Below are positions 2,771 to 64,000 of a DNA stretch of 64,000 nt, piece by piece. Made by a program: the position numbers and the translations under genes. Below the pieces are notes generated by a model that did no database searches, had not been told where the DNA came from, and saw nothing but the letters and a program-made list of their open reading frames with translations. Every line of letters begins with the position of its first letter. Positions within the stretch are counted from its first letter, which is position 1. The DNA is from Candidatus Levybacteria bacterium RIFCSPHIGHO2_02_FULL_40_18 (lineage in GTDB: Bacteria; Patescibacteriota; Microgenomatia; Levybacterales; GWA1-39-11), in NCBI GenBank assembly GCA_001782235.1, contig MFOC01000007.1, positions 156,040 through 220,039 on the forward strand. Direction: 5' to 3'.

Positions 2771-3430
2771 ATGAAAGATTTACTCATTGTTGCAAACTGG
2801 AAAGAAAACAAAACTTGGGAAGAAGCGCTTGATTTTCTTTCGGAGTTCTCGAAAATTTACGAGCCCAAACCCAATGTAAAAGTAGCGATTTGTCCTCCCT
2901 ATCTCTTGGTGCCGGAAGTTTCAAATTATGTTCGAACGAATAATCTTTCGATTGATGTTGGAGTTCAAAATTTATCAAAATTTGACGAGGGCGCGCACAC
3001 CGGTGAGGTTTCGGCACGCGAGGCGGCGGAATTCGCTCGGTTTGCAATAATTGGGCATTCCGAGAGAAGGGCGCTTGGAGAAACAGATAGTGATGTTAAG
3101 ATGAAAGTCGAAATGGCAATCAAATATAACATTGAACCTATCGTTTGTGTTGTGAACGAAAATGTCCCTATCCCTTCTGGCACAAAAATAGTAGCGTACG
3201 AACCAATCGAGGCAATTGGGACGGGAAATCCCGATACGCCGGAAAACGCCGATAGAGTAGCATCGGCTATAAAATCAAAATACCAAGGAATAATGCATGT
3301 TCTATATGGAGGAAGCGTTACATCTGAAAACGTTCGAAGATTCACACAAATGCAAAACATTGACGGAGTTTTAGTTGGAGGAGCAAGTCTTGATCCAAAA
3401 GAATTTTCCGCAATTGTAAAACAATGCTAA
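2771..3430 (+). CDS. tpiA: Triosephosphate isomerase
   Basis: IANWKEN, AICPP, IIGHSERR and AYEPIEAIGTGNPDTPE (the AYEPxWAIGTG signature). The internal Met MKDLLIV is preferred over the track start at 2720. Confidence 0.85.
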   Translation: MKDLLIVANWKENKTWEEALDFLSEFSKIYEPKPNVKVAICPPYLLVPEVSNYVRTNNLSIDVGVQNLSKFDEGAHTGEVSAREAAEFARFAIIGHSERRALGETDSDVKMKVEMAIKYNIEPIVCVVNENVPIPSGTKIVAYEPIEAIGTGNPDTPENADRVASAIKSKYQGIMHVLYGGSVTSENVRRFTQMQNIDGVLVGGASLDPKEFSAIVKQC

Positions 3431-4575
3431 ATAATTTTTCAAATAAGAAGAAACTCTTTTTGGTCCTACTTGTTCTGTTTATTTTTTCTCTCGGAGTATT
3501 TATTTTATATAAATTCTATTTCAAGCCCGATATTCAACTTAAAACCGAGAAAAAAACAGGCAATATTAATGTTTTGCTTCTTGGCAAAGCGGGCGGTCAG
3601 CATGAAGGCCCGGATTTAACAGACACCATAATTTTAGCAACTATAAATCCTCAAAAAAACGTAGTTAATCTTATCTCAATCCCAAGAGATCTCTGGATAC
3701 CGGACCTTCAAGCGAAAATCAATACAGCATATGCATATGGGCAAGAGAAAGATCGCCAGGGAAAGCTTTTAGCAAAAACGGCCGTAAGTCAGGTTACGGA
3801 AAAACAAATAGACTATGTTTTAGTTGTTGATTTCCAGGCATTCGTAGATTTGATTGATCATATCGGAGGAATTGACGTAGGTGTTAAAACAATTCTTGAT
3901 GATTATAAATACCCAATTGAAGGCCGCGAGGATGATCCTTGTGATCATACGGATGAAGAGATTATAGACCTTTCAGCCCAGATCGCCACCGGGAGCGCCT
4001 TACCAGAAGATGTATTCCCATGTAGATATAAACACATACATTTTGATGCCGGATTAGTTCATATGGACGGAGAACGAGCCCTAGAGTTTGTCCGGTCGCG
4101 CCACGGCACGAATGGTCAAGGGTCGGATTTTGCAAGAAGCATGCGACAGCAAGATGTTATTAATGCGGTAAGGGATAAGACTTTATCTTTGGGAACACTC
4201 CTTAATCCCATTAAGGTTTTAGGTGCTTTCAATATCATTCAAAACAATATTGATACGAATGCAGAGATCCGTGAGTTAGATGATTTCATAAATTTGGCAA
4301 GAAAAATTCAGGGCGCAAAAATAATAAGTACCGTAATAGACATTGGATCCGGGGAAGGACAAAGGCCAGGATTACTTATACATCCTCCCGTGTCAGAAGC
4401 GCAAAAACTTCAGTGGGTATTAATACCAAGAGTAGGAGACGGAAATTTTTCAGAAATTCATGAGTTTATAAAATGCATCGAAGAAGGATTCGAATGTAAA
4501 ATTGAAGAAGACGGCATTAGTAAGAATACCACGAGTATCAAGAGTACCAAAAGTACCAGAAATATAAAAGACTAA
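3424..4575 (+). CDS. LytR-CpsA-Psr (LCP) family cell-envelope phosphotransferase
   Basis: N-terminal TM, then NVLLLGKAGGQHEGPDLTDTIILATINP...ISIPRDLWIP...INTAYAYG...VVDFQAFVDLIDHIGGIDV, which matches LCP domain hallmarks. The last 15 codons lie in a GTATCA-type repeat. Confidence 0.8.
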   Translation: MLNNFSNKKKLFLVLLVLFIFSLGVFILYKFYFKPDIQLKTEKKTGNINVLLLGKAGGQHEGPDLTDTIILATINPQKNVVNLISIPRDLWIPDLQAKINTAYAYGQEKDRQGKLLAKTAVSQVTEKQIDYVLVVDFQAFVDLIDHIGGIDVGVKTILDDYKYPIEGREDDPCDHTDEEIIDLSAQIATGSALPEDVFPCRYKHIHFDAGLVHMDGERALEFVRSRHGTNGQGSDFARSMRQQDVINAVRDKTLSLGTLLNPIKVLGAFNIIQNNIDTNAEIRELDDFINLARKIQGAKIISTVIDIGSGEGQRPGLLIHPPVSEAQKLQWVLIPRVGDGNFSEIHEFIKCIEEGFECKIEEDGISKNTTSIKSTKSTRNIKD

Positions 4576-4587
4576 AGAAAATGGTTG

Positions 4588-4703
4588 TTGGAAATTAGAA
4601 AATAGTAATGGAGATAGGAAAATAGAAAATAGTTTAAAAACCAATTTCTAACATCTAATTTCCATTACCAATTTCTATTTTCTAATAACTAATTTCTAAC
4701 TCC
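4588..4703. repeat. Palindromic GAAATTAG/GAAAATAG/TAATGGA element, copy 1 (family also at 5866..6025 and 63908..64000)
   Basis: Left arm ggaaattagaaaatagtaatggagataggaaaatagaaaatag; right arm is its approximate reverse complement ...ctaatttccattaccaatttctattttctaat. It fills the convergent gap between the LCP gene and the 4713..6980 gene. Confidence 0.75.
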
Positions 4704-4712
4704 TGATACCTT

Positions 4713-6980
4713 TTAGTTGAGTTTATATATCTTTGTCTGCCCGACTTCAAAAACTACATCTCCGAGCTTTTCAAACTTTGCCTCGTTGATATTATTGTAT
4801 TTTTCGCGTTCAAGATTCCCGAGATAAACATATTTGATATTATGTTTTTTTAGAATCTTTTTCGTTTCGTCTAGATCGTTTGATTCGTAAATTAGTCTCA
4901 CTTCCTCAATTCGAGGTGCCGGAATATCATACGTTCCGCGCCAGAGCCATTCGTGAACTGTCCAACCAAGGACCGTCGGGAGTCCTGTGTTTGCCGATAT
5001 TCGGGCGTAATCCGTATAGGAGTCTCCCTGTGCCTCAACAATAACCGGCCTTCCCTCTATATTTTGGTTTAACCACATGATGGCTTTATAATCATCCGGG
5101 AGTCTGTCTTTCATGTAAGCGATTCCGTCAAGTCCGATAAATTTTCTTAAGTCTCCATAATAAGATTTGATTGCAAAGTAAGGATAGACGAAGACCAATA
5201 TTAAAAATAAAATAGCAAGTAGCAAATATACGTAGTAAACCCCGTTAGACCAATACCGTCTAACGGGGTAAATATTAAAAACTTTAAAACCTTTCGGTTT
5301 GAAACTTACGGCCAATCTCACAATAATATAGCCTGATGAGATTGAAAGCATGATGAAGCTTTGATAGACAAGTTTAAACATAGTGTTCGCGCGATAGTGG
5401 GCAGGATAAATGTCTTTCAAATAGATAAGTTCCGGAGTTATAATTAGTATCGAAGAAAGAAGGATCAAAAGAAAGATAAAAACATCCGAAACTTCAACTT
5501 TGAATTTCTTTTTTTGCCTCCTGATAAAAATGATAAAAGATAAAACGAAAAAGTAAAAAAATCCATAGAGCGTTAATAGTTGCCACCAGGTGCTTCTTTG
5601 GCAGTGGTCTTTTTCAAAAAGAAGTGGTCCAATTTGCCCTATATTTTCTAAAAATTTTGGGGGGCAAACCATGCCGATTCCCTGAGCAAACGGCTTAAAA
5701 TTTAAACTAAAAGGGAGCGTGAATAATACAAATAAAAAGAAGAGCGGTATTATTAACTTTGGTTTGCGAATATAAACAAAGACAAAACCGGCAAGAGCCA
5801 TATAAATTAGTCCGTCCCACGCATTAGTCATATACATAATTGCTAGCAAGAGTGCTAGCAATAAAATTCGAAATTCGAAATTCGAAGTTCTATTAAAAAG
5901 AAATTGGTTTATAGAAATTAGAAAATGGTAATAGAAATTAGATATTAGAAATTGGTATTTTTTGCTATTTTCTATTTTCCAGCTTCCATTACTAATTTCA
6001 ATTTTCTTAGAACTATTTTCCCTTCGTGGGGTTCCATGCCTTTGTATTAATAAGGCATAGAGTAGGGCGATTGTTAAGAGTACGAAAGGAATGTCGATTA
6101 CATGGCCGTGTAAATCCGATACGACAAAAGAATAAATGGGGAATTCGTGGATTGTGAAAGGTATAAATCTTGTCGCATTTGGGTACCAGTAACTATTGGG
6201 AAAAGTAGAAAATAAAAATTGTAAATTCCAAAATGGAACCGGCGCGTCAGTATTATATGAGGCAAAAAACGCATATATTGTATGAAGATTTCCAGCTAAA
6301 GCCACAATAAGGCCTGTTAGAAGTCCTCCTATAAAAGCTTTTCTCAGAGATACGACTTTAGACAAGATATTCGTCCCCAAAGAAAATGATAAGGTCAATG
6401 TAAAAGAAAATAAGGTTGCGATCATTAAGTTATATGAAACAGAGGAAGGCACAAAAGAGATTTCTGTCATAACCGCGGTCACAAGGTGTCCAAAGTAATA
6501 ATAATTTATCGGTAACGGCGGGAACCACATATCAACCGCTGGTTGCCACGTTGTTCGAAGAATCGAGTTCACAAATCCAAAATCCATGAACTTCTCAAGA
6601 CCATTAATACTTGGTTCATGCGCACGAATATAGCTCCAGAAGACAATTCCGGCAAAGAAAAGAAATTCTTCGAATAGAAAAATTTTTGCGAAGGGCTTGA
6701 GTTTATCAATCCTATGCTTTTTAAGAATAAAAATATTTCCGATAAGACAAATCCATAAAATTATTGCAAGAGAGAAAACGCCAAAAGGCAAAAGATGTAG
6801 ACTGTTGACCACAAGAATTATGTAGGAAATAATTCCAATTCCAAGAACCTTTGAGAAAAGAAATCCTCGATCCCAAAAATTCTTGAATATTAAAAAAGTT
6901 AATGGCGCAAATACTATTCCCACCAAAAAGAATGAGCCCCACCACTCTAGAATCCAAACAACTTCTTGAAAGCTAAACAT
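4713..6980 (-). CDS. Polytopic membrane protein with Chlor_Arch_YYY / DUF2298-like region (putative GT-C-like glycosyltransferase)
   Basis: Many TM helices; PINYYYFGHL motif; conserved C-terminal soluble domain (GRPVIVEAQGDSYTDYARISANTGLPTVLGWTVHEW). Contains an in-frame repeat-element-derived segment (see 5866..6025). Confidence 0.5.
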   Translation of the reverse strand: MFSFQEVVWILEWWGSFFLVGIVFAPLTFLIFKNFWDRGFLFSKVLGIGIISYIILVVNSLHLLPFGVFSLAIILWICLIGNIFILKKHRIDKLKPFAKIFLFEEFLFFAGIVFWSYIRAHEPSINGLEKFMDFGFVNSILRTTWQPAVDMWFPPLPINYYYFGHLVTAVMTEISFVPSSVSYNLMIATLFSFTLTLSFSLGTNILSKVVSLRKAFIGGLLTGLIVALAGNLHTIYAFFASYNTDAPVPFWNLQFLFSTFPNSYWYPNATRFIPFTIHEFPIYSFVVSDLHGHVIDIPFVLLTIALLYALLIQRHGTPRRENSSKKIEISNGSWKIENSKKYQFLISNFYYHFLISINQFLFNRTSNFEFRILLLALLLAIMYMTNAWDGLIYMALAGFVFVYIRKPKLIIPLFFLFVLFTLPFSLNFKPFAQGIGMVCPPKFLENIGQIGPLLFEKDHCQRSTWWQLLTLYGFFYFFVLSFIIFIRRQKKKFKVEVSDVFIFLLILLSSILIITPELIYLKDIYPAHYRANTMFKLVYQSFIMLSISSGYIIVRLAVSFKPKGFKVFNIYPVRRYWSNGVYYVYLLLAILFLILVFVYPYFAIKSYYGDLRKFIGLDGIAYMKDRLPDDYKAIMWLNQNIEGRPVIVEAQGDSYTDYARISANTGLPTVLGWTVHEWLWRGTYDIPAPRIEEVRLIYESNDLDETKKILKKHNIKYVYLGNLEREKYNNINEAKFEKLGDVVFEVGQTKIYKLN
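5866..6025. repeat. Palindromic GAAATTAG/GAAAATAG element copy embedded in-frame inside CDS 4713..6980
   Basis: aaattcgaaattcgaaattcgaag...gaaattagaaaatggtaatagaaattag...tttttgctattttctattttccag...ccattactaatttc. It shares a 22-nt exact block (ctggaaaatagaaaatagcaaaaa, reverse complement) with the 63908 copy. It is translated as ENSSKKIEISNGSWKIENSKKYQFLISNFYYHFLISINQFLFNRTSNFEFRI. Confidence 0.7.
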
Positions 6981-11134: not shown

Positions 11135-12786
11135 AATTTATGGTCGGGGTCCTGCCGCTCCGCGTCACCCCTTACTCGTTTAAAAATATAGACTGTTGGT
11201 CTGTCGAATACGCTTGTAGTTTCTTCGAAATTGAATACAGGGTTTCCTAAATAAGTAATTTTGCAAAATATGTCGCATGGCGTTTCATAAATTTTTTTAA
11301 ATCCTAATTTTTCAGAAAGTAGATTTGAATAGAAATTAAAACCATTAGGAAATTTTTCTTTATTAGCGATTCGAGATTTTAATACCCTTTGGCTAGGAGT
11401 AATAAGATAGTCTGCATTTTTTAATTGTTTTTCAAGCTCGATTTTTTTACGGGCACTGCCGTCTAGGTCATAAAAATTAAAAAGAGTGATATTTGGGAGA
11501 TAAGGGTTGAATGGCGTAATTCCAAGGTCATAAACTTCACTTAAAATTTTGGTATCTTTTGGAATATTCCAAGATGCCCATTTGCTTGCGGCAATTCTTG
11601 TGTCCTCTTTTATAAAGACTTCCGATAAATAGGAAAATGCAGAGACCGCATTTGTTAGTACTAAAGCCGCTACAATAACTGTCGCTTGCGTCCTAAAGTT
11701 TCGCAAGATCGTATCCAAAAAATCAACAACACCTATTGAGATAATTAAATATATGAAGGGGAGTGTGGGCACAAGATATCTAGTCCACTTTGCAAATAAA
11801 AGAGCATTTGGAAGAAATAAAATAACAAAAAAGATGCAAGGCATAAGATAGGCAACATTCCTCTTTTTTATTCCGCGATACATTACATAAGGTAGTGCGA
11901 TAATAAACAACAGCGTGAGGATAGGGTTAATAAGAAAAGGCAAAATATCGGTAAATTGGTAAATTACCGGAATAGTTCCAAAGAATTCGCCAGTATAAAA
12001 AACCGGCAAAGAGCCTGTCAAAAGAGAAGCCTCATATGCGAACATATCCCTGAAGTTTCTCGTTAAATAATAAGGAGATGCAAAAAAGGTAAGAAGCAAA
12101 GGGGAGCTTATTAAAAGAAAAAGATATATTGATCCTTGGATTTTATTTATTTTTTTCTCGCGGAGATGCATTACGAATAGCAACACCGGAATTATTAGAA
12201 ATATAAAAGAGTTAATTTTTATCGCCGTTGCTAAACTTACGATTAATATCGACATAAATATGTAAATTAATTTTTTAGTTTTCAGATACATGATCCCTGA
12301 TAAGAGAAGCAGAGAATACATTAAAGTAAGAATGCTCTCATAGACTCCAAAATGTGCCGCTTGAATAAGTCCGACAGAAAACGTTGTAAAAAGAGTTGCG
12401 GCAAGCGTTTGTTGCCATTTCAATGTTTTGTGACCAATAAGAAAGACTATTAAAATCGTAAATATTGACGAAACGCTAGATACAATTCTCAATAATATAA
12501 TGCTTTGGCCAAATGGGTCATTAAGTCCCAAAATACGAAGTATTGGGTCTGTTAAATTTTTGATCACGAATACAATATTTGAGACAAGGGTACCATAGGC
12601 AAAAGTCCCTTTTAAAAGGAAACCTAAGTTACTCCCGTCAAGTGAAGTGATTAAGGAGGCAATATTTCTTTCATCCGGGTGAAAATAAAATGGAGCCCCC
12701 CAATTTAGGTTATAAAAACGAAGGAACCCTCCAACTATCAAGAGAACTATTAGAATTTTTAATTTTAAATTTTTAATTTTAAACAT
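11131..12786 (-). CDS. GT-C fold membrane glycosyltransferase (ArnT/PMT_2-like), paralog of 9467..11134
   Basis: FLRFYNLNWGAPFYFHPDERNIASL after the first TM; polytopic. Start placed at ATG 12786 (MFKIKNLKLKI), which overlaps the upstream gene by 8 nt; the track start at 12948 would overlap it by 170 nt. Confidence 0.5.
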   Translation of the reverse strand: MFKIKNLKLKILIVLLIVGGFLRFYNLNWGAPFYFHPDERNIASLITSLDGSNLGFLLKGTFAYGTLVSNIVFVIKNLTDPILRILGLNDPFGQSIILLRIVSSVSSIFTILIVFLIGHKTLKWQQTLAATLFTTFSVGLIQAAHFGVYESILTLMYSLLLLSGIMYLKTKKLIYIFMSILIVSLATAIKINSFIFLIIPVLLFVMHLREKKINKIQGSIYLFLLISSPLLLTFFASPYYLTRNFRDMFAYEASLLTGSLPVFYTGEFFGTIPVIYQFTDILPFLINPILTLLFIIALPYVMYRGIKKRNVAYLMPCIFFVILFLPNALLFAKWTRYLVPTLPFIYLIISIGVVDFLDTILRNFRTQATVIVAALVLTNAVSAFSYLSEVFIKEDTRIAASKWASWNIPKDTKILSEVYDLGITPFNPYLPNITLFNFYDLDGSARKKIELEKQLKNADYLITPSQRVLKSRIANKEKFPNGFNFYSNLLSEKLGFKKIYETPCDIFCKITYLGNPVFNFEETTSVFDRPTVYIFKRVRGDAERQDPDHKL

Positions 12787-14059
12787 TAAAAATGAACTCG
12801 GATATTTTTTGTCCAAGTTCGACCGCATAATTCGTACCCCTATCCCAGGGGTAGACCTGTTGAATGTTGGCAAGATAAACATTTGGGAGCGGAGTTTCAG
12901 GCGGCGGAATAATTTTTGAATAATTCGTGGGAATGATTGGTTGAGCAAAGGGGGCCTTAAACAATTTATAATTTATAATTGATAATTTATAATTTGGGTT
13001 AATCTTTCGGAGCCAGGGATCGTAGAGCTTGAGAAGTTCGTCTTCAGTCATTTTGAAGCGAGGATCATCTTGTTCGACATAATTCCCTAAATATATAATG
13101 TGTTCATTATTGTAATGTTCATTGTCAATAAAATTTGTGTGTTCAACAATTGCAAGAATTGGAGATTTAGCATCACAAACGCTCAGCCAATAAGTGCCGT
13201 CTGTTAAAAACTGTTTTTTTAAGCGAAGCATTAGATTTAAAGCGCCCAAAGATTTAAGCTTCAAAAGATTTTTTTTATAATCAGCAGGAAGTTGCGGGGC
13301 AATTTTTATAAAGAAAAAAGACGGTAAAGTTACAGTTACCGAATCGAACTCATGATCTTTAACTTTTGACTTTTGACTTATAATTTTGACTTTTGACTTT
13401 TGACTTTTGAGTTCTGTGACTTCGGTATTGTAGTAAAATTTTCCGCCCTTTTTTTCGACCTCTTTTTGTAAATGTTCGGCAAAGCTCAAGAATCCACCTT
13501 CAGGGTAGGCAAGACTTTCGGTTCGTTTATAAACTCGGGCCCAGAACCAAGCAAGCGAAACATCGCCAGCATATTTTCCTAACTTATTCTGCATCAAAGG
13601 TTTCCAGATTTTTAGGTATGCATCTTTCCCCATTGATAGTTCAAGATAGCTTTGCGCGCGAAATCGCTCAAGAGGGCGCCATACGGGATTGTAACGAAGA
13701 GCGGCAAGGGACGCCCCCATTCGAACTCTATCTAAAAAGCCAATTTTTGGGAATTTTAAAAGAGACGTAGGAGAGTCGAGTTGAAAAATTCCGCCATCAA
13801 CAAAGGAGGACGTTTTGGGACGTCGGATTATGACTTTATGGTTAATATCATTTGCCAGTTTTAAAACGCTTTTGTCATTTGTGAACCAATGATGATAATG
13901 TTTTTCCAAAGACCAGTCCCATTCCTTCTCGCGATATCCGACTGCCAAACCCCCTGGTTTTTCATCCTTCTCGAAAACTGTAACATCGTACCCTTTTTGT
14001 GCCAAATAATATGCCGCTGAAAGTCCCGTAAACCCCGCTCCAATAATTCCAATTTTCAT
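12779..14059 (-). CDS. FAD/NAD(P)-binding oxidoreductase (amine oxidase / protoporphyrinogen-oxidase-like fold)
   Basis: MKIGIIGAGFTGLSAAYYLAQKGYDVTVFEKDEKPGG, a Rossmann GxGxxG-x17-E dinucleotide motif. ATG 14059 is preferred over the track TTG at 14092. Contains two in-frame heptamer-repeat segments. Confidence 0.7.
   Translation of the reverse strand: MKIGIIGAGFTGLSAAYYLAQKGYDVTVFEKDEKPGGLAVGYREKEWDWSLEKHYHHWFTNDKSVLKLANDINHKVIIRRPKTSSFVDGGIFQLDSPTSLLKFPKIGFLDRVRMGASLAALRYNPVWRPLERFRAQSYLELSMGKDAYLKIWKPLMQNKLGKYAGDVSLAWFWARVYKRTESLAYPEGGFLSFAEHLQKEVEKKGGKFYYNTEVTELKSQKSKVKIISQKSKVKDHEFDSVTVTLPSFFFIKIAPQLPADYKKNLLKLKSLGALNLMLRLKKQFLTDGTYWLSVCDAKSPILAIVEHTNFIDNEHYNNEHIIYLGNYVEQDDPRFKMTEDELLKLYDPWLRKINPNYKLSIINYKLFKAPFAQPIIPTNYSKIIPPPETPLPNVYLANIQQVYPWDRGTNYAVELGQKISEFIFNV
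12963..12996. repeat. ATAATTT heptanucleotide tandem repeat inside the oxidoreductase CDS
   Basis: ataattt ataattg ataattt ataattt; encodes KLSIINYKL. Confidence 0.7.
13362..13417. repeat. TTTTGAC heptanucleotide tandem repeat (about 8 units) inside the oxidoreductase CDS
   Basis: acttttgacttttgacttataattttgacttttgacttttgacttttgag; encodes SQKSKVKIISQKSKVK. The same TTTTGAC unit recurs intergenically at 53417..53470. Confidence 0.8.
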
Positions 14060-23953: not shown

Positions 23954-24106
23954 GCTCGTGTACATTTTTCTCAGACCCGCTCGGTAAGTTATTAGTTTAT
24001 TAATGTTATCCTCCCTTCGCTAAATGAAAATCGCATATTCACTTTAGTCTATATGTAATATTTTTCTTGAGCGATTTTCAGTTGTCTTCGAAAAATGTAC
24101 ACTTTG
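23954..24106 (+). repeat. ~155-bp MITE-like / structured element, copy 2
   Basis: Terminal inverted repeats cgtgtacatttttc / gaaaaatgtacac (13 bp perfect), with inner stem gaaaatcgc / gcgattttc. Exactly fills the convergent gap between the lepA stop (23951) and the stop of gene 24110..25309. Confidence 0.8.
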
Positions 24107-24109
24107 CGC

Positions 24110-25309
24110 CTAAAGGGCTAGGAGGGCGAGTCCGGCGACTATTGTCAGGATTATTGCCCCGATTATGCCAATAGTTTTTGCTACCTCCCCGGGCGGCGGA
24201 ACAGTTGGAGCAGTTGTTGGAACAGCTGTAGGGGAGGATGTTAGCGTACTTGTTGGGGTGAGCTGGCCGGATGATGTGCCTGTTGGCGTTGGCGCCGCCC
24301 CGGTGGGGCTCTGCCCCGGAGGGGGCGCGGTCGTAGCAGATCCTGCCGCTGTTGCCGTTATTGTTTGAGTACATGCAGTTGAAATCTTACCTCCATTATC
24401 CGTAAATACCGCTGTTGCGCCAAATGTTCCCGCAGACTGATATGTATGATTAGTTTGAATAGTAGCGGATTTTTGTCCAAGACCCTCCGTTATATCCTGA
24501 ATACTTCCATCGCCAAAGTTAAAAGATGCTTTTGTTAAGGTTCCGGCTGCGTCTGGATCATTGCCTTTGGCGGTTAGGGAAACTGAGAAAGGGGCGCTGC
24601 CTGTGACAGAAGGACTTACAGATAATTCTGTACAGAGAGGTGCTTGATTTGCAGTGCCTGTTGGAACAGTAGTGGGTGCGCTTGTTGGTGAGATTGTGCC
24701 AGTTGGCTGGGTTCCTGTAGGTGTCACAGTAGGTGTGACGGTTCCGCCAGTTGTACAGGCGTCAGACCCTATAGTTACATTTGCCGTAGAGACTTGAAAC
24801 AATACATTTTCGGTTGGTTCATCAGCCGGCGCCAGAGAGAAAACACGAGATTTCTCCGAGTCAAATGATATCTGTGCGCTTCCTGCTGCTTTTGGACGGA
24901 AGGTAACCGTGGCAACCTTTGAGACTACTTGTACGGCCCGTGTGACATCTGCTCCAACAGAGACGGACATATTTGCTTCTCCGCTTGAGACGCTGACCGG
25001 TCTCACTACTGTTGAAAAACTATCACTTTCTTTAATTTGTAGGACATCAAGTTTGGTAGGATCATATTTAAGGTAAAAATCAACTATAGAAACAATATTA
25101 GAGCTGGGATCGAGCATGATATCAACATTGAAATTTTGACATTGAGTTGAAGTATTTACATTTTCAGGACTAAAGGTGAGTTTTGAAGAAGGAGCGGCAC
25201 GACTTCGCAGTTCTTGTTGTCTTTTAATAAAAAAGAGAGTGAGGGGAATGCTTATCAAAAGCAACAATAAATTCCCAAGTATAAAATACCTGTTGGTTAA
25301 AATTTTCAT
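24110..25309 (-). CDS. Membrane-anchored surface protein with PKD-like domain and Thr/Pro/Gly-rich linkers
   Basis: N-terminal TM; NFGDGSIQDITE...HTYQSAGTFGATAVFTDNGG (PKD-like); C-terminal TM anchor. Contains GC-rich 35-nt motif copy A at 24291..24325. Confidence 0.5.
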   Translation of the reverse strand: MKILTNRYFILGNLLLLLISIPLTLFFIKRQQELRSRAAPSSKLTFSPENVNTSTQCQNFNVDIMLDPSSNIVSIVDFYLKYDPTKLDVLQIKESDSFSTVVRPVSVSSGEANMSVSVGADVTRAVQVVSKVATVTFRPKAAGSAQISFDSEKSRVFSLAPADEPTENVLFQVSTANVTIGSDACTTGGTVTPTVTPTGTQPTGTISPTSAPTTVPTGTANQAPLCTELSVSPSVTGSAPFSVSLTAKGNDPDAAGTLTKASFNFGDGSIQDITEGLGQKSATIQTNHTYQSAGTFGATAVFTDNGGKISTACTQTITATAAGSATTAPPPGQSPTGAAPTPTGTSSGQLTPTSTLTSSPTAVPTTAPTVPPPGEVAKTIGIIGAIILTIVAGLALLAL

Positions 25310-25730: not shown

Positions 25731-26015
25731 CAATTGCAATATAAAAAATAAAATATAAAATAGCAAAAATACATATCAAATATAAAAAATGAAAGGCAAA
25801 GAATCAGCTTCGAGAGCACCAAGGGTTAAACTGCAGACAGTTGGTAGTTTTTCGGAAGCAGCAGACATGCAGACAAAGAGAACAAGACCTACAGTAATTA
25901 CAGGTTTATCTATTGAAGGAAGTTGGGCAAAAGAAGCAAGAGAGGCAAAACAAAGAAGAGAATCGAAGCAAAATAGCTAAATATTTGATATTTGATTTGT
26001 ATATTTAATTTTTAA

Positions 26016-27677
<1,662 letters not shown>

Positions 27678-34256: not shown

Positions 34257-35136
34257 CCTGTTCGAGGCTCGCATATTGTTTGCTCACCCAGCCGAGCGTT
34301 CCGTCCTCAAGTTCTATTTGAAACCAGCTTGCATTTTCATCAACAAAAAGATAAGATTCTCCGGGATTTACGCGACTAATCTCCTGTGATGCAGTTGAAG
34401 GGTTTTCTCTCACTCTTAAAAATCCTACGGGCGTATTTTTGATTGTTACTTGCGGTTGATTTGCTTCTGTTGGGGAGGGTATCGGGGCGCCGCCCCGGAG
34501 GGACTCTGCCCCGGAGGGTGTGGACGTAGGTTCTAAGGTTTCATCGGCTGTACCTTGCGTTCCCAATATCACATTAAGAACCAGCTTATAAGAGGGAACC
34601 GCTCTTACTCTTACTGTCTTTTTTGAAAAGCCCTGCTTTTGAATTTCTATTTCGTGTTCTGAAGGAGAAATAGAGTTTTGCGAAAGAGGCGTAATTCCTT
34701 CTTCCCTTCCATCAATTGAAACAAGCGCGCCATCAGGGATAGACGCAACAAAAAGTTGCGGGTCGCTCGAATTGGTTTTTTCAAGCGCCAAAATATATGA
34801 GGAGGCATATGCCCCTGGCAAAAAAGTTCGCTCAACTGCCGTTAATACTCCGGAATTTATTCTAACGCGCGACATAAACGGTTCAACATTTTTATCATCT
34901 GGCACTATTTTTAATTCGTATACTCCTGCATTTAGCGTATCGTGTTGCTCACAACGACATAAAGGAGTTTGTCCTAATGGTTTATTATCAAGAAAAACCT
35001 GCGCCTTTATATTCGATGTGACTTGAAGGGCTCCTTTTCCGGCAGGCACAAGCGTATTTGCCGCAATCCTAACCAAAAGAAACATTCCGGCAAGAATTAA
35101 AATAATCGCAACAACAAGAAGAATTCTTCTTTTCAT
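34246..35136 (-). CDS. PEGA-domain protein with C-terminal SH3b-like domain
   Basis: N-terminal TM; ALQVTSNIKAQVFLDNKPLGQTPL and SIPDGALVSIDGREEGITPL (PEGA-like); C-terminal WFQIELEDGTLGWVSKQYA (SH3b-like). Contains GC-rich motif copy B at 34486..34518. Confidence 0.5.
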   Translation of the reverse strand: MKRRILLVVAIILILAGMFLLVRIAANTLVPAGKGALQVTSNIKAQVFLDNKPLGQTPLCRCEQHDTLNAGVYELKIVPDDKNVEPFMSRVRINSGVLTAVERTFLPGAYASSYILALEKTNSSDPQLFVASIPDGALVSIDGREEGITPLSQNSISPSEHEIEIQKQGFSKKTVRVRAVPSYKLVLNVILGTQGTADETLEPTSTPSGAESLRGGAPIPSPTEANQPQVTIKNTPVGFLRVRENPSTASQEISRVNPGESYLFVDENASWFQIELEDGTLGWVSKQYASLEQATE

Positions 35137-36749: not shown

Positions 36750-36799
36750 ATATGAATTATACCCGAGCCTATGAGGCTAAACAAGCCTCATGGGAAGAG

Positions 36800-36880
36800 T
36801 ACCACGGGTATCAAGAGTACCAAAAGTATCAAGGGCTCTTACTTTTCGAATGTAGTCTAATGATCTAGATAATTAGATTA
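36800..36880. repeat. GTATCA-heptamer + TAGTCTAAT-palindrome intergenic element (family also at 4525..4570 and 58232..58296)
   Basis: agagtaccacgggtatcaagagtaccaaaagtatcaag ... gtagtctaatgatctagataattagattagaca. It is near-identical to accacgagtatcaagagtaccaaaagtacc at 4531-4562 and is related to gggtatcacgagtatcacgg...tagtctaataattcagatcattagact at 58232-58296. Confidence 0.6.
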
Positions 36881-36894
36881 GACATAATTCGTTT

Positions 36895-51440: not shown

Positions 51441-53452
51441 GGTGAATAGTTGACAGTAACGTCATTTAATACTGGTGCCGCATATACATCGGTGGTAGAA
51501 AAATATGCTTTATACTTAAAGCAGCGTCCTGGATTAACATACCCTTGCGCGTTTGTAAGAAGAGGAATAGCAGACGAGGTTGCAAAGAACGTGTTTGAAG
51601 TTCCGTCCGGCCCCACAAAATAATAAGAGGAATTAGTGCAGCTTCCACCAACATCGGAAGCCACAGCTACTTGAAGCTCCAAATTTGTTCCCAAAGGCTC
51701 AATGAAATTAGGAATAATTCTGTTGTAGGCAACACTTGATCCTGCGTCAAAAGGGCCTGAGACAAAAGTGCCTGAAGTTGTATATTCTCCTCCGGGTCCG
51801 CCTTCAATAACCTTGAGCTCCAAAGGAGCATCCCCGGTGACAATATATGAATAGGCGTCTCCATCTGCTTCAAGAACTGATGCGCTGTCATTAATGCCAA
51901 AGTTCATCTGCATTCCTCCGCATCTGACAGGACTTGCTTCTGTTGAGATATCAATAACCTGATATTCTTCGCCTCCCTGTCCAATAACAACTGCCCGATT
52001 CCCGGGTACAATTTCAACGGCTTTAAGATTAACAGAAGTCCCGGCATTATAAGTGCCTAAATCCGGACAATCACTGCAATTTTTGTTTGTAGTGTTAATT
52101 ATGAAAAATTCGGGCAGTGTGGATGAAGCATCTGTAACAAGATAGGCTCTTGTCGCATCGGAGTTCATGTAAACATCTCTTGCTGCCTCTCCATTTACAT
52201 CTGCCCATCCAACTCGAGTTATGCTGGCCGGGTTTGAGATATTGAAAATCTCAAGTTCTCTTACGTGTCCCGCAATCGAGACAAATGCATAATTTCCCGA
52301 AACCACAACAGACGTTCCGGTCGCAGAGATTGCCGCGCCATCCGGGTCAATTGCGGGACAAGAGCCAGTTCGATTTCCTCCGCTACAGGTGGCAAGATTG
52401 AAATTTCTAAGTCTATTCCCTTGTGTCATATAGCCGGTGTTGCCCACTATAAAAACACTATTTGTGTCGGTATTTCCGAACGCATCAAAGTATCCCGATT
52501 CGGAATATGGAAGGGTAGCCATGTTAATAATAACTATCTCCTTAGAATTCGTGTCTGTTCCTATATATCCATAATTACCTTCTATATAAACATCATTTGT
52601 TTTATAACCGTTAAATGTTCCCGAAATTGTAGCGACAGGTGGATCGGTATTTGTGACGGCAATATCGGCAAGGGATACTCCGGAAGAGTTTTCTCCTGTT
52701 CCTGCCAAGATGCGGCCTTCATATGCCGAGACGGCATTTGCTACTCCACTTTTGGGAAGATCAAGATCTTCGACAATGTACTGATTAGGATTACACCAGT
52801 CACCGCCTCCTCCCGCGCCTAGAGTGACCTCGCCTCCATTGGTGTTTGTAACTATGGTACCCGATAGAGTTCCCGAATTAAAATCGGACTCTGAAGTTTG
52901 CGTAAAAATAGTGTTGTTAAGATAACGAGTTAAATACATGGTCGAGGTGACCCCTGATGGGTATGGAGTATTCCAGGAAACAGTGATAACGCTCTTTTTA
53001 GTTGATGGATCAAGCGTTCCGCTTTCGACAAGATATCCATTAGAATCTCGGTAAGCATCACTTATCGTGATTTGACGCGCGTAGCCGTTAATTGTTTCGC
53101 TTCCTGAGATAAGCTGCCATGAAGGCCCGGATCCTTGAGGATGATAAGTTCCATTTGTTTCAACTTGCGACCAGCTTGTTTCGCGGATTACACGTAAAGC
53201 TTCCTGACCCTCACGCAAAAGCCCCGTTGCCTCAAGTCTCTGCGCATTTTGCGCTTTTCCCTCTCGTGATGCCACAAGCCCTGTTATGAGTCCTGGCAAA
53301 ACAAGCGAGGCAAAGGCCAGAGCCACCAGAAGTTCCACCAATGCCTGTCCATTGTGGCTTCGCCACAATTTTAAAGTTAAAAGTTTAAAGTTAAAAGTTT
53401 TTAAAGAGAAGCTATAATTTTGACTTTTGAATTGTAATTTTGAATTTTGCAT
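51437..53452 (-). CDS. Large (about 640-670 aa) pilin-like protein, candidate minor pilin / tip adhesin
   Basis: HNG|QALVELLVALAFASLVLPGL prepilin-like N-terminus followed by a large beta-rich domain. The true start is probably the in-frame TTG at 53369..53367 (leader MWRSHNG) rather than the track ATG at 53452, which would translate the upstream tandem repeats. Confidence 0.55.
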   Translation of the reverse strand: MQNSKLQFKSQNYSFSLKTFNFKLLTLKLWRSHNGQALVELLVALAFASLVLPGLITGLVASREGKAQNAQRLEATGLLREGQEALRVIRETSWSQVETNGTYHPQGSGPSWQLISGSETINGYARQITISDAYRDSNGYLVESGTLDPSTKKSVITVSWNTPYPSGVTSTMYLTRYLNNTIFTQTSESDFNSGTLSGTIVTNTNGGEVTLGAGGGGDWCNPNQYIVEDLDLPKSGVANAVSAYEGRILAGTGENSSGVSLADIAVTNTDPPVATISGTFNGYKTNDVYIEGNYGYIGTDTNSKEIVIINMATLPYSESGYFDAFGNTDTNSVFIVGNTGYMTQGNRLRNFNLATCSGGNRTGSCPAIDPDGAAISATGTSVVVSGNYAFVSIAGHVRELEIFNISNPASITRVGWADVNGEAARDVYMNSDATRAYLVTDASSTLPEFFIINTTNKNCSDCPDLGTYNAGTSVNLKAVEIVPGNRAVVIGQGGEEYQVIDISTEASPVRCGGMQMNFGINDSASVLEADGDAYSYIVTGDAPLELKVIEGGPGGEYTTSGTFVSGPFDAGSSVAYNRIIPNFIEPLGTNLELQVAVASDVGGSCTNSSYYFVGPDGTSNTFFATSSAIPLLTNAQGYVNPGRCFKYKAYFSTTDVYAAPVLNDVTVNYSP

Positions 53453-53470
53453 TATGAATTTTTAATTTAA
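53370..53470. repeat. Two adjacent 7-nt-periodic tandem repeat arrays (AAAGTTA/AAAGTTT and TTTTGAC/TTTTGAA) between pilin genes
   Basis: ttaaagttaaaagtttaaagttaaaagttttt ... aattttgacttttgaattgtaattttgaattttgcattatgaatttttaattt. Confidence 0.75.
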
Positions 53471-56808: not shown

Positions 56809-57207
56809 GTGAAAAGGTTAATAAATAGTTTCGATAAGTTAAAAGCGTGGCAAGAGGCTCATAAATTAGTAGTTATGATCTATAAGGTAACAACTAGTTT
56901 TCCGAAACATGAAATGTATAGATTAACAGATCAGCTATGTCGATCAGCAAGTTCGATCGCGGCAATTTTGGTTGAGGGTAATTCGCGAGGTTCAAGAAAA
57001 GAGTATATTCATTTCGTTTTCCAAGCAAGAGCATCCTTAGAAGAACTTAAGTATCACCTTCTACTGGCAAAAGACCTAGGTTATTTAGATGAAAGCTTAT
57101 ATAATAAGTTAATGGCACAGGTAGATTTGGTTGGGAAACTAATTAATGGCCTACTTCGATACTTAAAATCTAGTAGAAATGTCCAATATCCAAAATCTAA
57201 TATCTAA
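56809..57207 (+). CDS. Four-helix-bundle protein (TIGR02436; 23S rRNA intervening-sequence protein / DGR Avd-like family), standalone
   Basis: FDKLKAWQEAHKLVVMIYKVTTSFPKHEMYRLTDQLCRSASSIAAILVEGNSRGSRKEYIHFVFQARASLEELKYHLLLAKDLGYL matches the family consensus. Confidence 0.8.
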   Translation: MKRLINSFDKLKAWQEAHKLVVMIYKVTTSFPKHEMYRLTDQLCRSASSIAAILVEGNSRGSRKEYIHFVFQARASLEELKYHLLLAKDLGYLDESLYNKLMAQVDLVGKLINGLLRYLKSSRNVQYPKSNI

Positions 57208-57224
57208 TATCTAATATCAAAATT
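57186..57224. repeat. CTAATAT heptanucleotide tandem repeat between the four-helix-bundle gene and the dehydrogenase gene
   Basis: atatccaaaat ctaatat ctaatat ctaatat caaaatt. Confidence 0.7.
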
Positions 57225-58226
57225 ATGAAGTTTGCGTGTTTTGAACTACAAGACTGGGAAGAGGATTATCTTAAAGAAAAATTCGGAAACACCGTTGACA
57301 TCTCGTTCCATTCGGAGGAATTAAATATTGAGAATGTTCCGGCCGTAAAAGATGCGGATGGAATTGTGGTGTTCATCTATTCGACTATCGATAAACAAGT
57401 TCTTGACCTGATGCCTAATCTGAAATTTATCGCAACTATGTCAACGGGATTTGACCATATTGATATTGAGGAGTGTAAAAGACGAAACATTATCGTATCA
57501 ACTGTTCCGACATACGGAGAGAATACCGTCGCAGAACACGCTTTTGCTCTAATTTTTGCCATATCACGAAGATTGATTGAGTCCCATAATAGAGTTTCCG
57601 AAGGAAATTTCTCACCAACAGGGCTTACGGGGTTCGATCTTTTTGGAAAAACTTTAGGGGTGATTGGGGTTGGAAATATTGGCTCGCATGTTATCCGAAT
57701 CGCCAAAGGGATTGGCATGGATGTTTTAGCTTATAAACGAACGCCGGATCCAAAACTTGCAGCTGATCTTGGGTTCCGTTTTGTATCTATGGACGAGTTG
57801 CTTTCTCAATCAGATATAATTTCAGTTCATGTTCCATACAATAAAGAAACACATCACATGCTAAATAGCGATGCATTTTCTAAAATGAAGGATGGCGTTG
57901 TGATTATAAACACTGCACGAGGGGCAATTATTGATACAACGGCATTAGTTTCAGCGCTTCAAAGCGGAAAAGTTGCGGCCGCAGGACTCGATGTTCTTGA
58001 AGAAGAATCAATTATTCGCGAGGAACATGAGCTTTTGCACAAAGAGTTTCCGATTGAAGATTTAAAAACAGTTCTTGAAAACCACATGCTCTTAAATAAT
58101 CCAAAAGTTGTGATTACTCCCCATAATGCCTTCAACAGCCGTGAGGCCCTGATGCGAATATTGCGGATCACCGAGGAGAACATCAACGGCTTCCTCGCGG
58201 GCCAACCTAAGAATTTGGCCTTCTAA
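57225..58226 (+). CDS. D-isomer-specific 2-hydroxyacid dehydrogenase (D-lactate dehydrogenase-like)
   Basis: NAD-binding GVIGVGNIGSHV; catalytic region VHVPYNKETHHML...INTARGAIIDTTALVSAL...GLDVLEEE. Confidence 0.85.
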   Translation: MKFACFELQDWEEDYLKEKFGNTVDISFHSEELNIENVPAVKDADGIVVFIYSTIDKQVLDLMPNLKFIATMSTGFDHIDIEECKRRNIIVSTVPTYGENTVAEHAFALIFAISRRLIESHNRVSEGNFSPTGLTGFDLFGKTLGVIGVGNIGSHVIRIAKGIGMDVLAYKRTPDPKLAADLGFRFVSMDELLSQSDIISVHVPYNKETHHMLNSDAFSKMKDGVVIINTARGAIIDTTALVSALQSGKVAAAGLDVLEEESIIREEHELLHKEFPIEDLKTVLENHMLLNNPKVVITPHNAFNSREALMRILRITEENINGFLAGQPKNLAF

Positions 58227-59439: not shown

Positions 59440-59865
59440 CTATAGCTGTTTTACGTCGTCCTCGATGCCTTTAAGATCGGTCTCAGGGCTTCCAAGATCG
59501 ATTGTTTCTATATCTTCTTCAGAAAGCGGCGTGGGCGTTGGTGTTAGCGTGGGCGTTGGAACCTGTGTAGGGGCCGGAGTTACCTGTGCGTTGTTCTGAT
59601 TATTAAGCTGAGTTGCCAAGAAATAAGTTACCCCAAGAACTATAAGCAAAAGAATTCCAACTGCAATAAATAAAACCATTTTACTGTTCGGCGGCATGGC
59701 AGGCCCTCCTTGACTTGCGGGTGGTGTGAGGGGAGCAGTCGGTTGAGGAGGTGTTGGCGCCGCCCCGGAGGGGCTCTGCCCCGGAAGGGGTGGTGCGGGC
59801 GGAACGTTTCCCACAGGCACAGTGGGATTGTCAAGAGTTTGATTTTGTGGTTGATTTGGGTCCAT
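59440..59865 (-). CDS. Pro-rich single-TM protein, hypothetical
   Basis: PPAPPLPGQSPSGAAPTPPQPTAPLTPP ... TM ... TPAPTQVPTPTLTPTPTP. Contains GC-rich motif copy C at 59756..59790. Confidence 0.35.
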   Translation of the reverse strand: MDPNQPQNQTLDNPTVPVGNVPPAPPLPGQSPSGAAPTPPQPTAPLTPPASQGGPAMPPNSKMVLFIAVGILLLIVLGVTYFLATQLNNQNNAQVTPAPTQVPTPTLTPTPTPLSEEDIETIDLGSPETDLKGIEDDVKQL

Positions 59866-61891: not shown

Positions 61892-62638
61892 TCAGATATC
61901 TTCAATTTTTGTATCACTGACTTTTCCAAAACCACACCCGCCCGGATCAACCACTTCTGAACCACCTATTGCTTTTGCACTTTGGTGATTAAGGGCATGA
62001 TAATGCTCCACGGGTTTCTGATTTGTTTGGCATTCGGGACCAATTCCTGTTGTGAGCGCACTTATTGGAATCTTTTTTCCGTTAAAATCTATAACTTTTA
62101 CCCCGTTAGATAATTTTGATCTAACGGGGTTTATCTTTTGCGCAGGAGATGTGGGAAATGGGGCTGAAGCTTTTTCCGTTTGCGGACTCCGGAAATTTAT
62201 GACAATTCCGACAGCAACTATTATTGCTGCCGCAATTGTTATAATTCCCAAAGGGCCTTTGAATCCTGCAAGAATATTTTTTGTGCTGGTAAAAGCTTCT
62301 TGCGAATCGCCCTGCGTTTTCTCAAATTCACTTTTTACTCGTTTAACTTCTGATTTAAGCTGATTCCAGTTTCTTATGAAAAGCAAAAGCGCCTTTTTCC
62401 TATTTTTGTCCTCGCGGGTTTCCTCTGGCAAGTGCTCAACGCTTAGCCCAACAACATCACCCTCCTTAAATCGTAAAATTTGCGAATGCAGTTTAAATAA
62501 TCGGTTTAAGATTTCGTCTGCCTTTGGATTTATGCCGCGAAGTAAGGTTCGAATCGATTCTAATTTTTGAATTGTTGTTGAATCCTCTTGAAGTAAATCA
62601 TATGCGGCAAGAATTTTCTTTCTCGTCTCCTGATTCAT
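61892..62638 (-). CDS. Hypothetical protein with central TM
   Basis: 248 aa: N-terminal helical region, a TM (GIITIAAAIIVAVGIVI), and a C-terminal Cys/Gly-containing domain. Confidence 0.3.
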   Translation of the reverse strand: MNQETRKKILAAYDLLQEDSTTIQKLESIRTLLRGINPKADEILNRLFKLHSQILRFKEGDVVGLSVEHLPEETREDKNRKKALLLFIRNWNQLKSEVKRVKSEFEKTQGDSQEAFTSTKNILAGFKGPLGIITIAAAIIVAVGIVINFRSPQTEKASAPFPTSPAQKINPVRSKLSNGVKVIDFNGKKIPISALTTGIGPECQTNQKPVEHYHALNHQSAKAIGGSEVVDPGGCGFGKVSDTKIEDI

Positions 62639-63316: not shown

Positions 63317-63412
63317 CTTAAAAAGTATCATACTTTTTAAGAAATTTCCAATTACCAATTGCCAGTTTCCAATGATTAACTGGCAAATGGAAACTGGAAA
63401 CTGGAGATTTCT
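63317..63412. repeat. Two consecutive palindromes: a perfect 12-bp hairpin abutting the DUF1003 start codon, and a 7-nt-periodic palindromic array (CCAATT / GGAAACT units)
   Basis: cttaaaaagtat-c-atactttttaag (63317-63342); ttccaattaccaattgccagtttccaatgattaactggcaaatggaaactggaaactgg (63345-63412). Confidence 0.6.
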
Positions 63413-63906
63413 CGGTAGTTTGCTCCGAGCGGAGAGAGTTTTGATTCGAATAAAGTTATTTTGCCAACAGTCATTTCCCAACTGATGTTCCGTTCGATTT
63501 GTTCATCCTTTAATTTCTCGAAATTTAGATGTTTGAACCGCGCTAAGGTTATATGGGTTTTGAATGGTCTTTTTTCAGGTTTTTTTTTAAGATGAACATT
63601 GATATTTTTCCTGAGTTCTAAAAGATCTCTTGGTGTTTGTGCTTCTGCCCAAAAAAGTCTTGGAGCAATGCTTGGACCCAAAGAGATACTATCGAATCTT
63701 ATCTCGAAATTCCGAATGAGAGATTTAAAAGAGGATAAATATTTAACCAAATCGTTAATTTTTGTTTCATACCATGGAGGGACTAAAGTGATATGGAGAT
63801 TTTCAGGCTTTATGAATCTAACAGGCAGATTTTTATGTTTTTCCTGCCACGCAAGAATTCGTTTTTGAATTTCTTCCGATGTTTTAATGCCGATAAAAAC
63901 CCTCAT
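63376..63906 (-). CDS. thpR: RNA 2',3'-cyclic phosphodiesterase / 2'-5' RNA ligase (LigT/ThpR, 2H family)
   Basis: Two H-x-T-x motifs (HITLV and HITLA) at the expected spacing. Confidence 0.7.
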   Translation of the reverse strand: MRVFIGIKTSEEIQKRILAWQEKHKNLPVRFIKPENLHITLVPPWYETKINDLVKYLSSFKSLIRNFEIRFDSISLGPSIAPRLFWAEAQTPRDLLELRKNINVHLKKKPEKRPFKTHITLARFKHLNFEKLKDEQIERNISWEMTVGKITLFESKLSPLGANYREISSFQFPFAS

Positions 63907-63907
63907 A

Positions 63908-64000
63908 ATTAGAAATTAGTTTTTGGAAAATAGAAATTAGTAATGGAAAGTGGAAAATAGAAAATAGCAAAAACAAAAACCAATTTCCAATTTCAAGTTT
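63908..64000. repeat. Palindromic GAAATTAG/GAAAATAG/TAATGGA element, copy 3 (truncated by window end)
   Basis: ttagaaattagtttttggaaaatagaaattagtaatggaaagtggaaaatagaaaatagcaaaaacaaaaaccaatttccaatttc. Shares extended identity with the copies at 4588 and 5866. Confidence 0.7.

Follow-up and report, generated by a model that had tools for sequence, protein, structure and literature searches.

Can selfish palindromic DNA be written into proteins in the Candidate Phyla Radiation (CPR), as it is in Rickettsia? The question is raised by a 64,000-nucleotide (nt) stretch of the genome of Candidatus Levybacteria bacterium RIFCSPHIGHO2_02_FULL_40_18 (contig MFOC01000007.1; the whole stretch is referred to below as the window), in which a palindromic element lies within the open reading frame (ORF) of a membrane protein of the DUF2298 family. 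The original prediction placed a palindromic repeat of ~120-130 bp at 4588-4703, 5866-6025 and 63908-64000, and likened its copy in the DUF2298 gene to the in-frame Rickettsia palindromic elements (RPEs). All three copies are present at essentially these coordinates, and the observation of a repeat family with three copies in the window is confirmed. It is probable (about 0.8) that the genic copy, c2, belongs to a dispersed, non-autonomous palindromic repeat family and was inserted in-frame in a loop of the DUF2298 protein, and its interpretation as a real, RPE-like in-frame insertion is supported.

The element and its copies in the window

The three copies, and the two genes that adjoin or contain c1 and c2, are as follows.

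3424-4575, plus strand: LytR_cpsA_psr gene, convergent partner of the DUF2298 gene
4574-4702, no strand assigned: copy c1, intergenic (nhmmer E 4e-27, HMM positions 6-131; match 4574-4698/4702)
4713-6980, minus strand: gene for a DUF2298/YYY-family polytopic membrane protein of 755 amino acids (aa), host gene of c2 (Pfam PF10060, E 5e-93)
5863-6024, minus strand: copy c2, in the DUF2298 gene, with a core at 5896-6024 and an outer flank at 5863-5895 (nhmmer E 7e-27; match 5896-6022/6024)
63908-64000, no strand assigned: copy c3, cut off by the window end (nhmmer E 5e-17)

The nhmmer profile that matches each copy rests on 35 arm-anchored segments, of which other genomes supplied 31, and finds no fourth match in the window at E<0.1. 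A motif describing a single arm (GTAATRGANNNNRGAWRWTAGAAAWTRG) has five matches in the window, corresponding to both arms of c1 and c2 and to one arm of c3, and none in any of 100 dinucleotide-preserving shuffles. A repeat search ties together 4577-4699, 5899-6020 and 63909-63973, the shared arms being 55-63 nt long and 78-89% identical between copies. Judging from a mutual identity of only 76-80%, the three copies in the window are old.

The core of the element, ~127 nt long, consists of two inverted arms (55-60 nt), each of which is an ordered row of eight 7-nt words. The words are GAAAWTR-G repeats with the landmarks GTTGTTN in second place and GTAATRG in fifth, and the second arm is an inverted copy of the first, from which it is separated by a loop of 4-25 nt. 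When c1, c2 and c3 are compared with the cross-genome profile, the landmark words occur in the same order on both arms. Variation within the words is limited to A/T at position 5 and A/G at position 7, and is independent between the arms. In addition, c2 and a subfamily in a metagenome-assembled genome (MAG) of Curtissbacteria share an extra outer flank of CGAAAT heptamers, represented in the window by 5863-5895 with (GAAATTC)3. The left end of c2 therefore lies at about 5863, in agreement with the predicted limit of 5866, and the copy is ~162 nt, or 54 codons, long. In an autocorrelation of the whole window, lag 7 was the only period among those tested (4-12) with 35-nt windows at ≥80% self-identity. 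This was the informative scan; a strict ungapped palindrome scan recovered c1 alone among the copies of the element, and sliding-window minimum free energy favoured GC-rich coding regions over the AT-rich elements.

The spacer between the convergent LytR_cpsA_psr and DUF2298 genes is filled by c1, and the TAA stop codon of the LytR gene (4573-4575) abuts its first word. The complete form of c3, 132 nt long, is found at 3868-3999 of contig L183 from the same species (here and below, labels such as L002, L031, L068 and L183 denote contigs of other genomes or MAGs, and P-numbers denote homologous proteins). It occupies the entire spacer between msrB (SelR) and ligT, with the TAG stop codon of msrB within the first heptamer and the ATG of ligT 2 nt beyond the element.

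The copy within the DUF2298 gene

The DUF2298 residues encoded by c2 are ~319-372 (PRRENSSKKIEISNGSWKIENSKKYQFLISNFYYHFLISINQFLFNRTSNFEFRI). The copy is free of stop codons in one frame only, which is the frame that the DUF2298 gene uses, and every one of the remaining five frames has 2-7 stops; c1 has stops in all six frames. The host gene is intact and conserved on either side of the insert, and the best Pfam PF10060 stretch in the protein (residues 50-489) spans it, so that the location claimed for the copy, in-frame within the 755-aa ORF, is borne out. Homologs of the protein number 3194 at E<=1e-10 and are mostly 690-740 aa long. The insert had been described as a hydrophilic, low-complexity stretch of ~55 aa. 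Its length holds (~54 codons), but it is hydrophilic in its first half only (RENSSKKIEISNGSWKIENSKKY), giving way to aromatic and hydrophobic residues in the second (QFLISNFYYHFLISINQFLF).

An alignment with 28 orthologs places the segment in a hypervariable loop between conserved helices (…DIPFVLLTIALL and LLAIMYMTNAWDG…). In an AlphaFold model of the protein (mean predicted local distance difference test score, pLDDT, 72), residues 318-348 form a low-confidence coil and residues 347-362 a low-confidence helix, flanked by confident helices at 296-316 and 366-385. The model says only that the insert would leave the flanking helices in place; other loops of the model are also of low confidence. 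Four other assemblies of the species, obtained from different samples (ERZ4903125, ERZ27254754, ERZ28563825 and ERZ4903185), carry the 2268-nt gene unchanged or with a difference of 1 nt. Across these assemblies there is no useful population polymorphism in the host gene, and on this comparison the near-identity shows the insert to be fixed in the species.

No ortholog contains the segment, which indicates lineage specificity: the element is absent from all 28 aligned orthologs, and the signature of its peptide occurs in the query alone among the 120 best matches (the query and 119 orthologs). Several of the aligned orthologs have only ~7 residues at this loop, and others carry unrelated low-complexity inserts. 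The syntenic relative L068 is empty at both sites: an 8-nt overlap between its DUF2298 and LytR genes leaves no spacer for c1, and its short loop lacks c2. In L002, whose protein is 71% identical, the DUF2298-LytR spacer (12152-12262) holds a different palindrome with the same words arranged inside-out, CTAATTTC… coming first and …GAAATTAG last, and the family profile does not match it. With c1 in the window, an inside-out palindrome in L002 and no spacer in L068, palindromes are turning over rapidly at this one orthologous junction, to judge from the three sequences compared.

Two further observations concern the orthologs. Protein P0005 matches the window protein except at one residue for ~310 residues and then departs from it exactly at the element site, beyond which it has a different insert (NSKFKIQNYHRQGGIPTENYQ…) and a lower downstream identity; this divergence may stem from recombination at the repeat or from a chimera in the assembly. 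Orthologs such as P0022, P0044, P0069, P0079 and P0103 have other variable loops, at three or four distinct positions, with peptides that resemble translated DNA repeats (MVRQAHHPEQRR, ILRFAQNDK, LPHRQAGN, NFKLKIL and KIKNLKLKIKN).

In-frame copies in other genes

The prediction that in-frame copies would also be found in unrelated genes holds for the genes encoding MiaA and MiaB in L031. Together with c2, these are the 3 of ~40 full-length copies at genome loci that lie inside long ORFs. The MiaA copy falls within the IPPT domain stretch (104-381) and the MiaB copy between UPF0004 and Radical_SAM, and all three are read in a common element frame (…WKIEISN.K.KIENSK..QF.IS…). Among the metagenome matches listed, one diverged full-length copy, present on two contigs, lies in a long ORF (1 distinct copy of 103). 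Judging from its sequence, we take this ORF to be ComEC-like. About 90% of the ~143 full-length copies have stops in all six frames, and the few open ones include the genic copies. In-frame insertion is therefore recurrent but rare (~3%).

Searches at the protein level yielded little. A profile of five element peptides gave four weak matches in a set of 5.8 billion proteins, all to short ORFs of 27-71 aa, and a phmmer search of 1.84 billion representatives with the 55-aa insert gave four matches, namely three unrelated repeat proteins and an 82-aa ORF over a copy of the element.

In L031 (172-2740), MiaA and MiaB both contain a second repeated peptide (two occurrences of EATKRHNNAAKRQNTTP in MiaA, and EATRRHNNPTKTLASKP in MiaB), which suggests that this genome may hold a further in-frame DNA repeat.

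Distribution and divergence of the family

Copies beyond the three in the window are widespread. Public contigs with the family number >170, and most belong to CPR MAGs from the Microgenomates and Parcubacteria groups. A motif scan of species-representative genomes found 60 loci, ~40 of them with full palindromes of the same architecture, and a metagenome scan found at least 114 loci, with 148 elements among the matches listed, 103 of which are full length. The labelled hosts include Curtiss-, Levy- and Woesebacteria of the Microgenomates group, and Moranbacteria and Parcubacteria of the Parcubacteria group; several MAGs labelled Gammaproteobacteria or Methylomirabilis, with a G+C content of 34-42%, are probably mislabelled or misbinned. 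A partial AT-rich element (52 bits) is located at 6672-6755 of L054, a MAG labelled Terriglobia with 60% G+C, and could result from horizontal transfer or from a chimeric contig. No match to the element was obtained in viral contigs. A search of the whole window against Rfam 15 gave no match at the gathering threshold and only chance matches to miRNAs (E ~2). Searches of the literature found no paper that ties CPR bacteria to transposable elements of the miniature inverted-repeat type (MITEs), repetitive extragenic palindromic (REP) elements or REPIN-type elements, and none on this repeat. The family appears to be undescribed.

The short spacers in which the copies lie are almost wholly taken up by them, with the flanking ORFs 5-50 nt away. 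These spacers are co-directional (tandem) in 24 cases, convergent in two and divergent in none. A preference for the 3′ ends of genes is not significant by this count, in which ~2.3 divergent spacers would be expected. The mean identity of copies is 78.5% within a MAG and 71.2% between MAGs (sd 5.2%). Bursts of near-identical copies occur in Curtissbacteria JACPEV01 (96-99%) and CAYPRN01 (87-94%), in which the likeness reaches into shared flanks and includes small nested insertions. Near-identical Curtissbacteria copies differ by such nested insertions at L043 ~690-710 and L014 ~4610-4640, one a 21-nt GC hairpin (TTTTGCGAAGCAAAACTTCGC) and the other a 27-nt segment, and thus even smaller repeats insert into the element.

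Origin of the genic copy

A feasible course of events is the following. The repeat would multiply within CPR genomes, as MITEs, REPINs and RPEs do, and would usually come to lie at gene ends, in the short spacers there, surviving where it is harmless. In the line of descent of this species, a ~162-nt copy may have been inserted into a short resident heptamer tract, or copied onto it by recombination, which would involve a homology step. The insertion point would have encoded a loop between two transmembrane helices. The gene would have stayed intact because the length of the element is a multiple of three and one of its frames is free of stops (…WKIEISNG.WKIENSK..QF.IS.F…). The element would then be transcribed and translated within the protein, making the loop ~50 residues longer, and the insert would have been tolerated and fixed. 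We infer insertion rather than local growth, as well as translation and neutrality of the insert.

Several observations weigh against this account. The genic share is only ~3% of the full-length copies, and the 76-80% identity of the window's copies does not point to recent activity here. The ends of c2 and those of five Curtissbacteria copies in alignment show no direct repeats indicative of a target-site duplication, but these ends are themselves heptamer repeats, which blurs the boundaries. No transposase is linked to the element: a Y1 gene resembling those of REP-associated tyrosine transposases (RAYTs) occurs in L002, L016 and L020 but is never adjacent to a copy (in L016 it lies 6 kb away), and none was found in the window by tblastn with the Y1_Tnp sequence of L002. 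Furthermore, the same 7-nt word (peptide WKLEI) already forms a short tract at this loop in 13 of the 119 orthologs. The site is therefore not naive, and local growth or homology-driven copying is inseparable from transposition. With regard to mobility, the link to a RAYT/Y1 transposase for which L002 had provided the lead is not supported, as the Y1 genes are never beside elements. Across the window and ~1.3 Mb of loci, no parent insertion sequence that shares the ends of the element was recognised; the systematic search there used a Y1 transposase query only.

The main rival explanation is a local origin, in which slippage and expansion of a resident 7-nt tract was followed by inverted duplication, and the likeness to other copies arose from words that the genome favours. 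Period 7 is the only enriched short periodicity of the window, other heptamer tracts occur in its ORFs and spacers, the GGAAATT tract that encodes WKLEI is present at the same loop in the 13 orthologs, and different peptides derived from heptamers are found in the variable loops of orthologs. However, c2 fits all 127 positions of a profile to which other genomes contribute most of the segments, with the landmarks in order on both arms, and its outer flank is common to the Curtissbacteria copies; slippage would not recreate this order of words. This full-length, ordered-landmark match to other genomes disfavours local growth, which seems unlikely. It is distinctly unlikely that the element functions as a structured nucleic acid with a stem kept by selection (for example, an RNA hairpin with a role in regulation or processing, a terminator, a site for RNase III or a cruciform in the DNA), through which the genic copy would regulate the expression of DUF2298. 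Such a function would accord with the strong hairpin of c1 (-43.5 kcal/mol, z -7.3), with the location of copies at gene ends in operon spacers (24 tandem, two convergent and no divergent) and with the conservation of the sequence across CPR groups. The fold of c2 is poorer (-34.3 and -28.1 kcal/mol, z -4.0 and -3.1), and the divergent-spacer deficit falls short of significance, as noted above. Moreover, the arms of 32 copies do not covary, when the hairpin is set by voting over single-sequence folds: 82.8% of cells are paired, compared with 83.9±0.4% after partner shuffling (499 of 500 shuffles at least as high), and the covariation score is 0.084 compared with 0.097 in shuffles. RNAalifold finds no consensus structure in these copies, and there is no Rfam match. 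A structured RNA or a selected stem is thus unlikely because the arms do not covary. An intrinsic (Rho-independent) terminator was also considered and rejected, as the c1 stem is not GC-rich (23% GC) and a terminator scan reported no terminator-like site within c1; the lone site reported lies just outside c2, at 6025-6038.

Two other explanations concern the integrity of the gene itself. The 755-aa ORF might not be one gene but a fusion or split point, as the original prediction had offered as its alternative, or it might reflect chance read-through of an intergenic element or the removal of an intron- or intein-like segment. The element is otherwise typical of intergenic spacers. Against this stand the single DUF2298 stretch that crosses the element, the contiguity of 28 of 28 orthologs with invariant residues on both sides, the lack of a match to any Rfam intron family and a peptide without intein-like features. 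A fusion or split point is rejected on these grounds, and the explanation as a whole is very improbable. A repeat-induced chimeric join in the assembly would be expected to look like P0005, which diverges exactly at the element after ~310 identical residues; but the same 2268-nt gene, with at most one substitution, is found in four other assemblies, and the frame and the downstream conservation are intact, so that an artefact of this kind is extremely improbable.

Significance of the probable in-frame insertion

If c2 is a genic copy of a dispersed family, the Rickettsia-type writing of selfish palindromic DNA into proteins extends to the CPR, another large group with reduced genomes. The element would account for part of the length variation of CPR orthologs, produces spurious small hypothetical proteins (e.g., P0121 and P0126), and likely causes contig breaks or chimeras in metagenome assemblies. 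As an easily recognised repeat family that is common to distant CPR lineages, it may serve as a lineage marker.

The most interesting remaining puzzle is that the order of words is conserved across CPR super-groups without covariation of the stem. It is tempting to speculate that the element is an array of sites at which a conserved DNA-binding protein of the CPR recognises GAAAWTRG heptamers in duplex form, although we regard this idea as doubtful. It would explain the word order conserved between Microgenomates and Parcubacteria, the absence of arm covariation and the confinement of variation to positions 5 and 7. The candidate partners would be a domesticated recombinase, a nucleoid protein or a DNA-uptake receptor, and genic copies such as c2 would be collateral. 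If the conservation of words without covariation does reflect a protein partner, it would point to a new DNA-recognition system in the CPR. Taken with the other in-frame repeats of the window, CPR proteins might then generally obtain loop sequence from translated DNA repeats.

Other repeats in the window

The window has a G+C content of 39% overall (33-49% across 2-kb windows), and the best homologs are from Candidatus Levybacteria and other Patescibacteria, which identifies it as part of a CPR genome. A second, unrelated repeat is also found in-frame in the DUF2298 gene.

5240-5272, minus strand: 33-nt GC hairpin (CCCCGTTAGA-N-TCTAACGGGG), unrelated to the element, in-frame in DUF2298 at residues 570-581 (IYPVRRYWSNGV)
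62099-62131, minus strand: sister 33-nt GC hairpin, in-frame in the ORF 61892-62638(-) at residues 170-180 (NPVRSKLSNGV)

The former corresponds to an 11-residue gap in 28 of 28 aligned orthologs and to a low-pLDDT loop in the model. A GC-rich repeat of 41 nt (GGCGCCGCCCCGGAGGGGCTCTGCCCCGGAGGGG-like, 78-93% identical) occurs in three minus-strand ORFs, at 24285-24325, 34480-34520 and 59750-59790. It is read in two frames, giving PPPGQSPTGAAPTP and PLPGQSPSGAAPTP in one and TPSGAESLRGGAPI in the other, and this points to a putative DNA-level repeat rather than a homologous protein linker.

Other tracts with a 7-nt period are located at 212-267, 1457-1503, 12748-12798, 12953-13002, 13355-13426, 25981-26022, 53418-53460 and 57172-57234, and are made of words that differ from those of the element (TTAGATC, TTTTAAT, TTATAAT, TTTTGAC and CTAATAT). 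The tract at 1457-1503 lies within a UvrD-like ORF (QEITKIQDLRSKIQFS), the L002 ortholog of which has a different insert there (DFQFQISLPRRQAGNFKL). A 9-nt-period repeat (AAGAGTACC…) at 4513-4567, directly before c1, supplies the LytR-family protein with its C-terminal tail (…KNTTSIKSTKSTRNIKD) and recurs at 36786-36849, beside another palindrome (36854-36887). A separate palindrome of 56 nt at 63345-63400 (TTTCCAATTACCAATTGCCAGTTTCC…GGAAACTGGAAA) overlaps the 3′ end of a ligT-like gene (63376-63906, minus strand) and includes the final residues of its product (…SSFQFPFAS) and the stop codon. Finally, two blocks of 40-48 nt that are 90-98% identical are shared by 2576-2666, in the UvrD/TIM divergent spacer, and 24006-24095, in the 24.0-kb spacer, and may be a shared promoter or leader.

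Comparison with known systems

The ten families RPE-1 to RPE-10 of Rickettsia are in-frame palindromic elements (Ogata et al., 2000, as summarised in PMC10969869), and in the main families, according to that summary, roughly half of the copies are genic (PMC10969869). The present element resembles them in being a palindromic repeat of ~100-150 bp that is dispersed through a reduced genome (here with a hairpin-forming consensus of 127 nt), in its in-frame copies in unrelated housekeeping genes, in the conserved frame that would give a family-specific peptide on translation, and in the placement of the insert in a loop compatible with the host fold. It differs in its host, which belongs to the CPR rather than the Rickettsiales, in its construction from 7-nt words (the two being compared here by description rather than by sequence), in its genic share (~3% as opposed to roughly half) and in its range, which covers two CPR super-groups rather than one genus. 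The predicted analogy with RPEs thus stands for behaviour, i.e., in-frame insertion, recurrence and lineage specificity, but the element is not a member of the Rickettsia families and its genic copies are rare.

Bacterial MITEs with intragenic, in-frame copies include ERIC/RU-1 (127 bp), RU-2 and RU-3 (PMC2759123; reviewed in PMC3184786). In common with these, the element is small (127-162 nt), has terminal inverted symmetry, and is mostly intergenic and non-coding with occasional genic copies that contribute peptides. Unlike for a MITE, no parent insertion sequence was recognised in the loci searched, and no target-site duplication is visible at its ends, which heptamer repeats blur. The element is also a single long, imperfect palindrome of heptamer words rather than a unique core between short terminal inverted repeats. 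REP elements and REPINs are mobilised by RAYT transposases (PMC3116915, PMC3337134, PMC3733652). The element is similar to REPINs in having two inverted units in a hairpin of ~100 nt, an extragenic location at gene ends and genome-specific subfamilies. By contrast, it has no GTAG or CGTC head, its arms are AT-rich and 55-60 nt long whereas REPs are GC-rich and 20-40 nt long, no RAYT gene is flanked by elements, the arms do not covary and copies also occur inside genes.

The short tandemly repeated repetitive (STRR) heptanucleotide sequences and small dispersed repeats of cyanobacteria are said to have been described by Mazel in 1990 and Elhai in 2008. They share with the element a 7-nt tandem periodicity, nesting (seen here in L014 and L043) and insertion in functional genes. 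An STRR, however, is a direct array of one word, whereas the element is an ordered row of eight words with two landmarks and an inverted duplicate, and this ordered unit is conserved across distant genomes. The words and the host clade also differ, and the relationship is one of analogy rather than membership. By the defining features of RPEs, MITEs and REP/REPIN elements, the element falls outside each of these families; it is RPE- and ERIC-like in its behaviour, and REPIN- and heptamer-repeat-like in its architecture.

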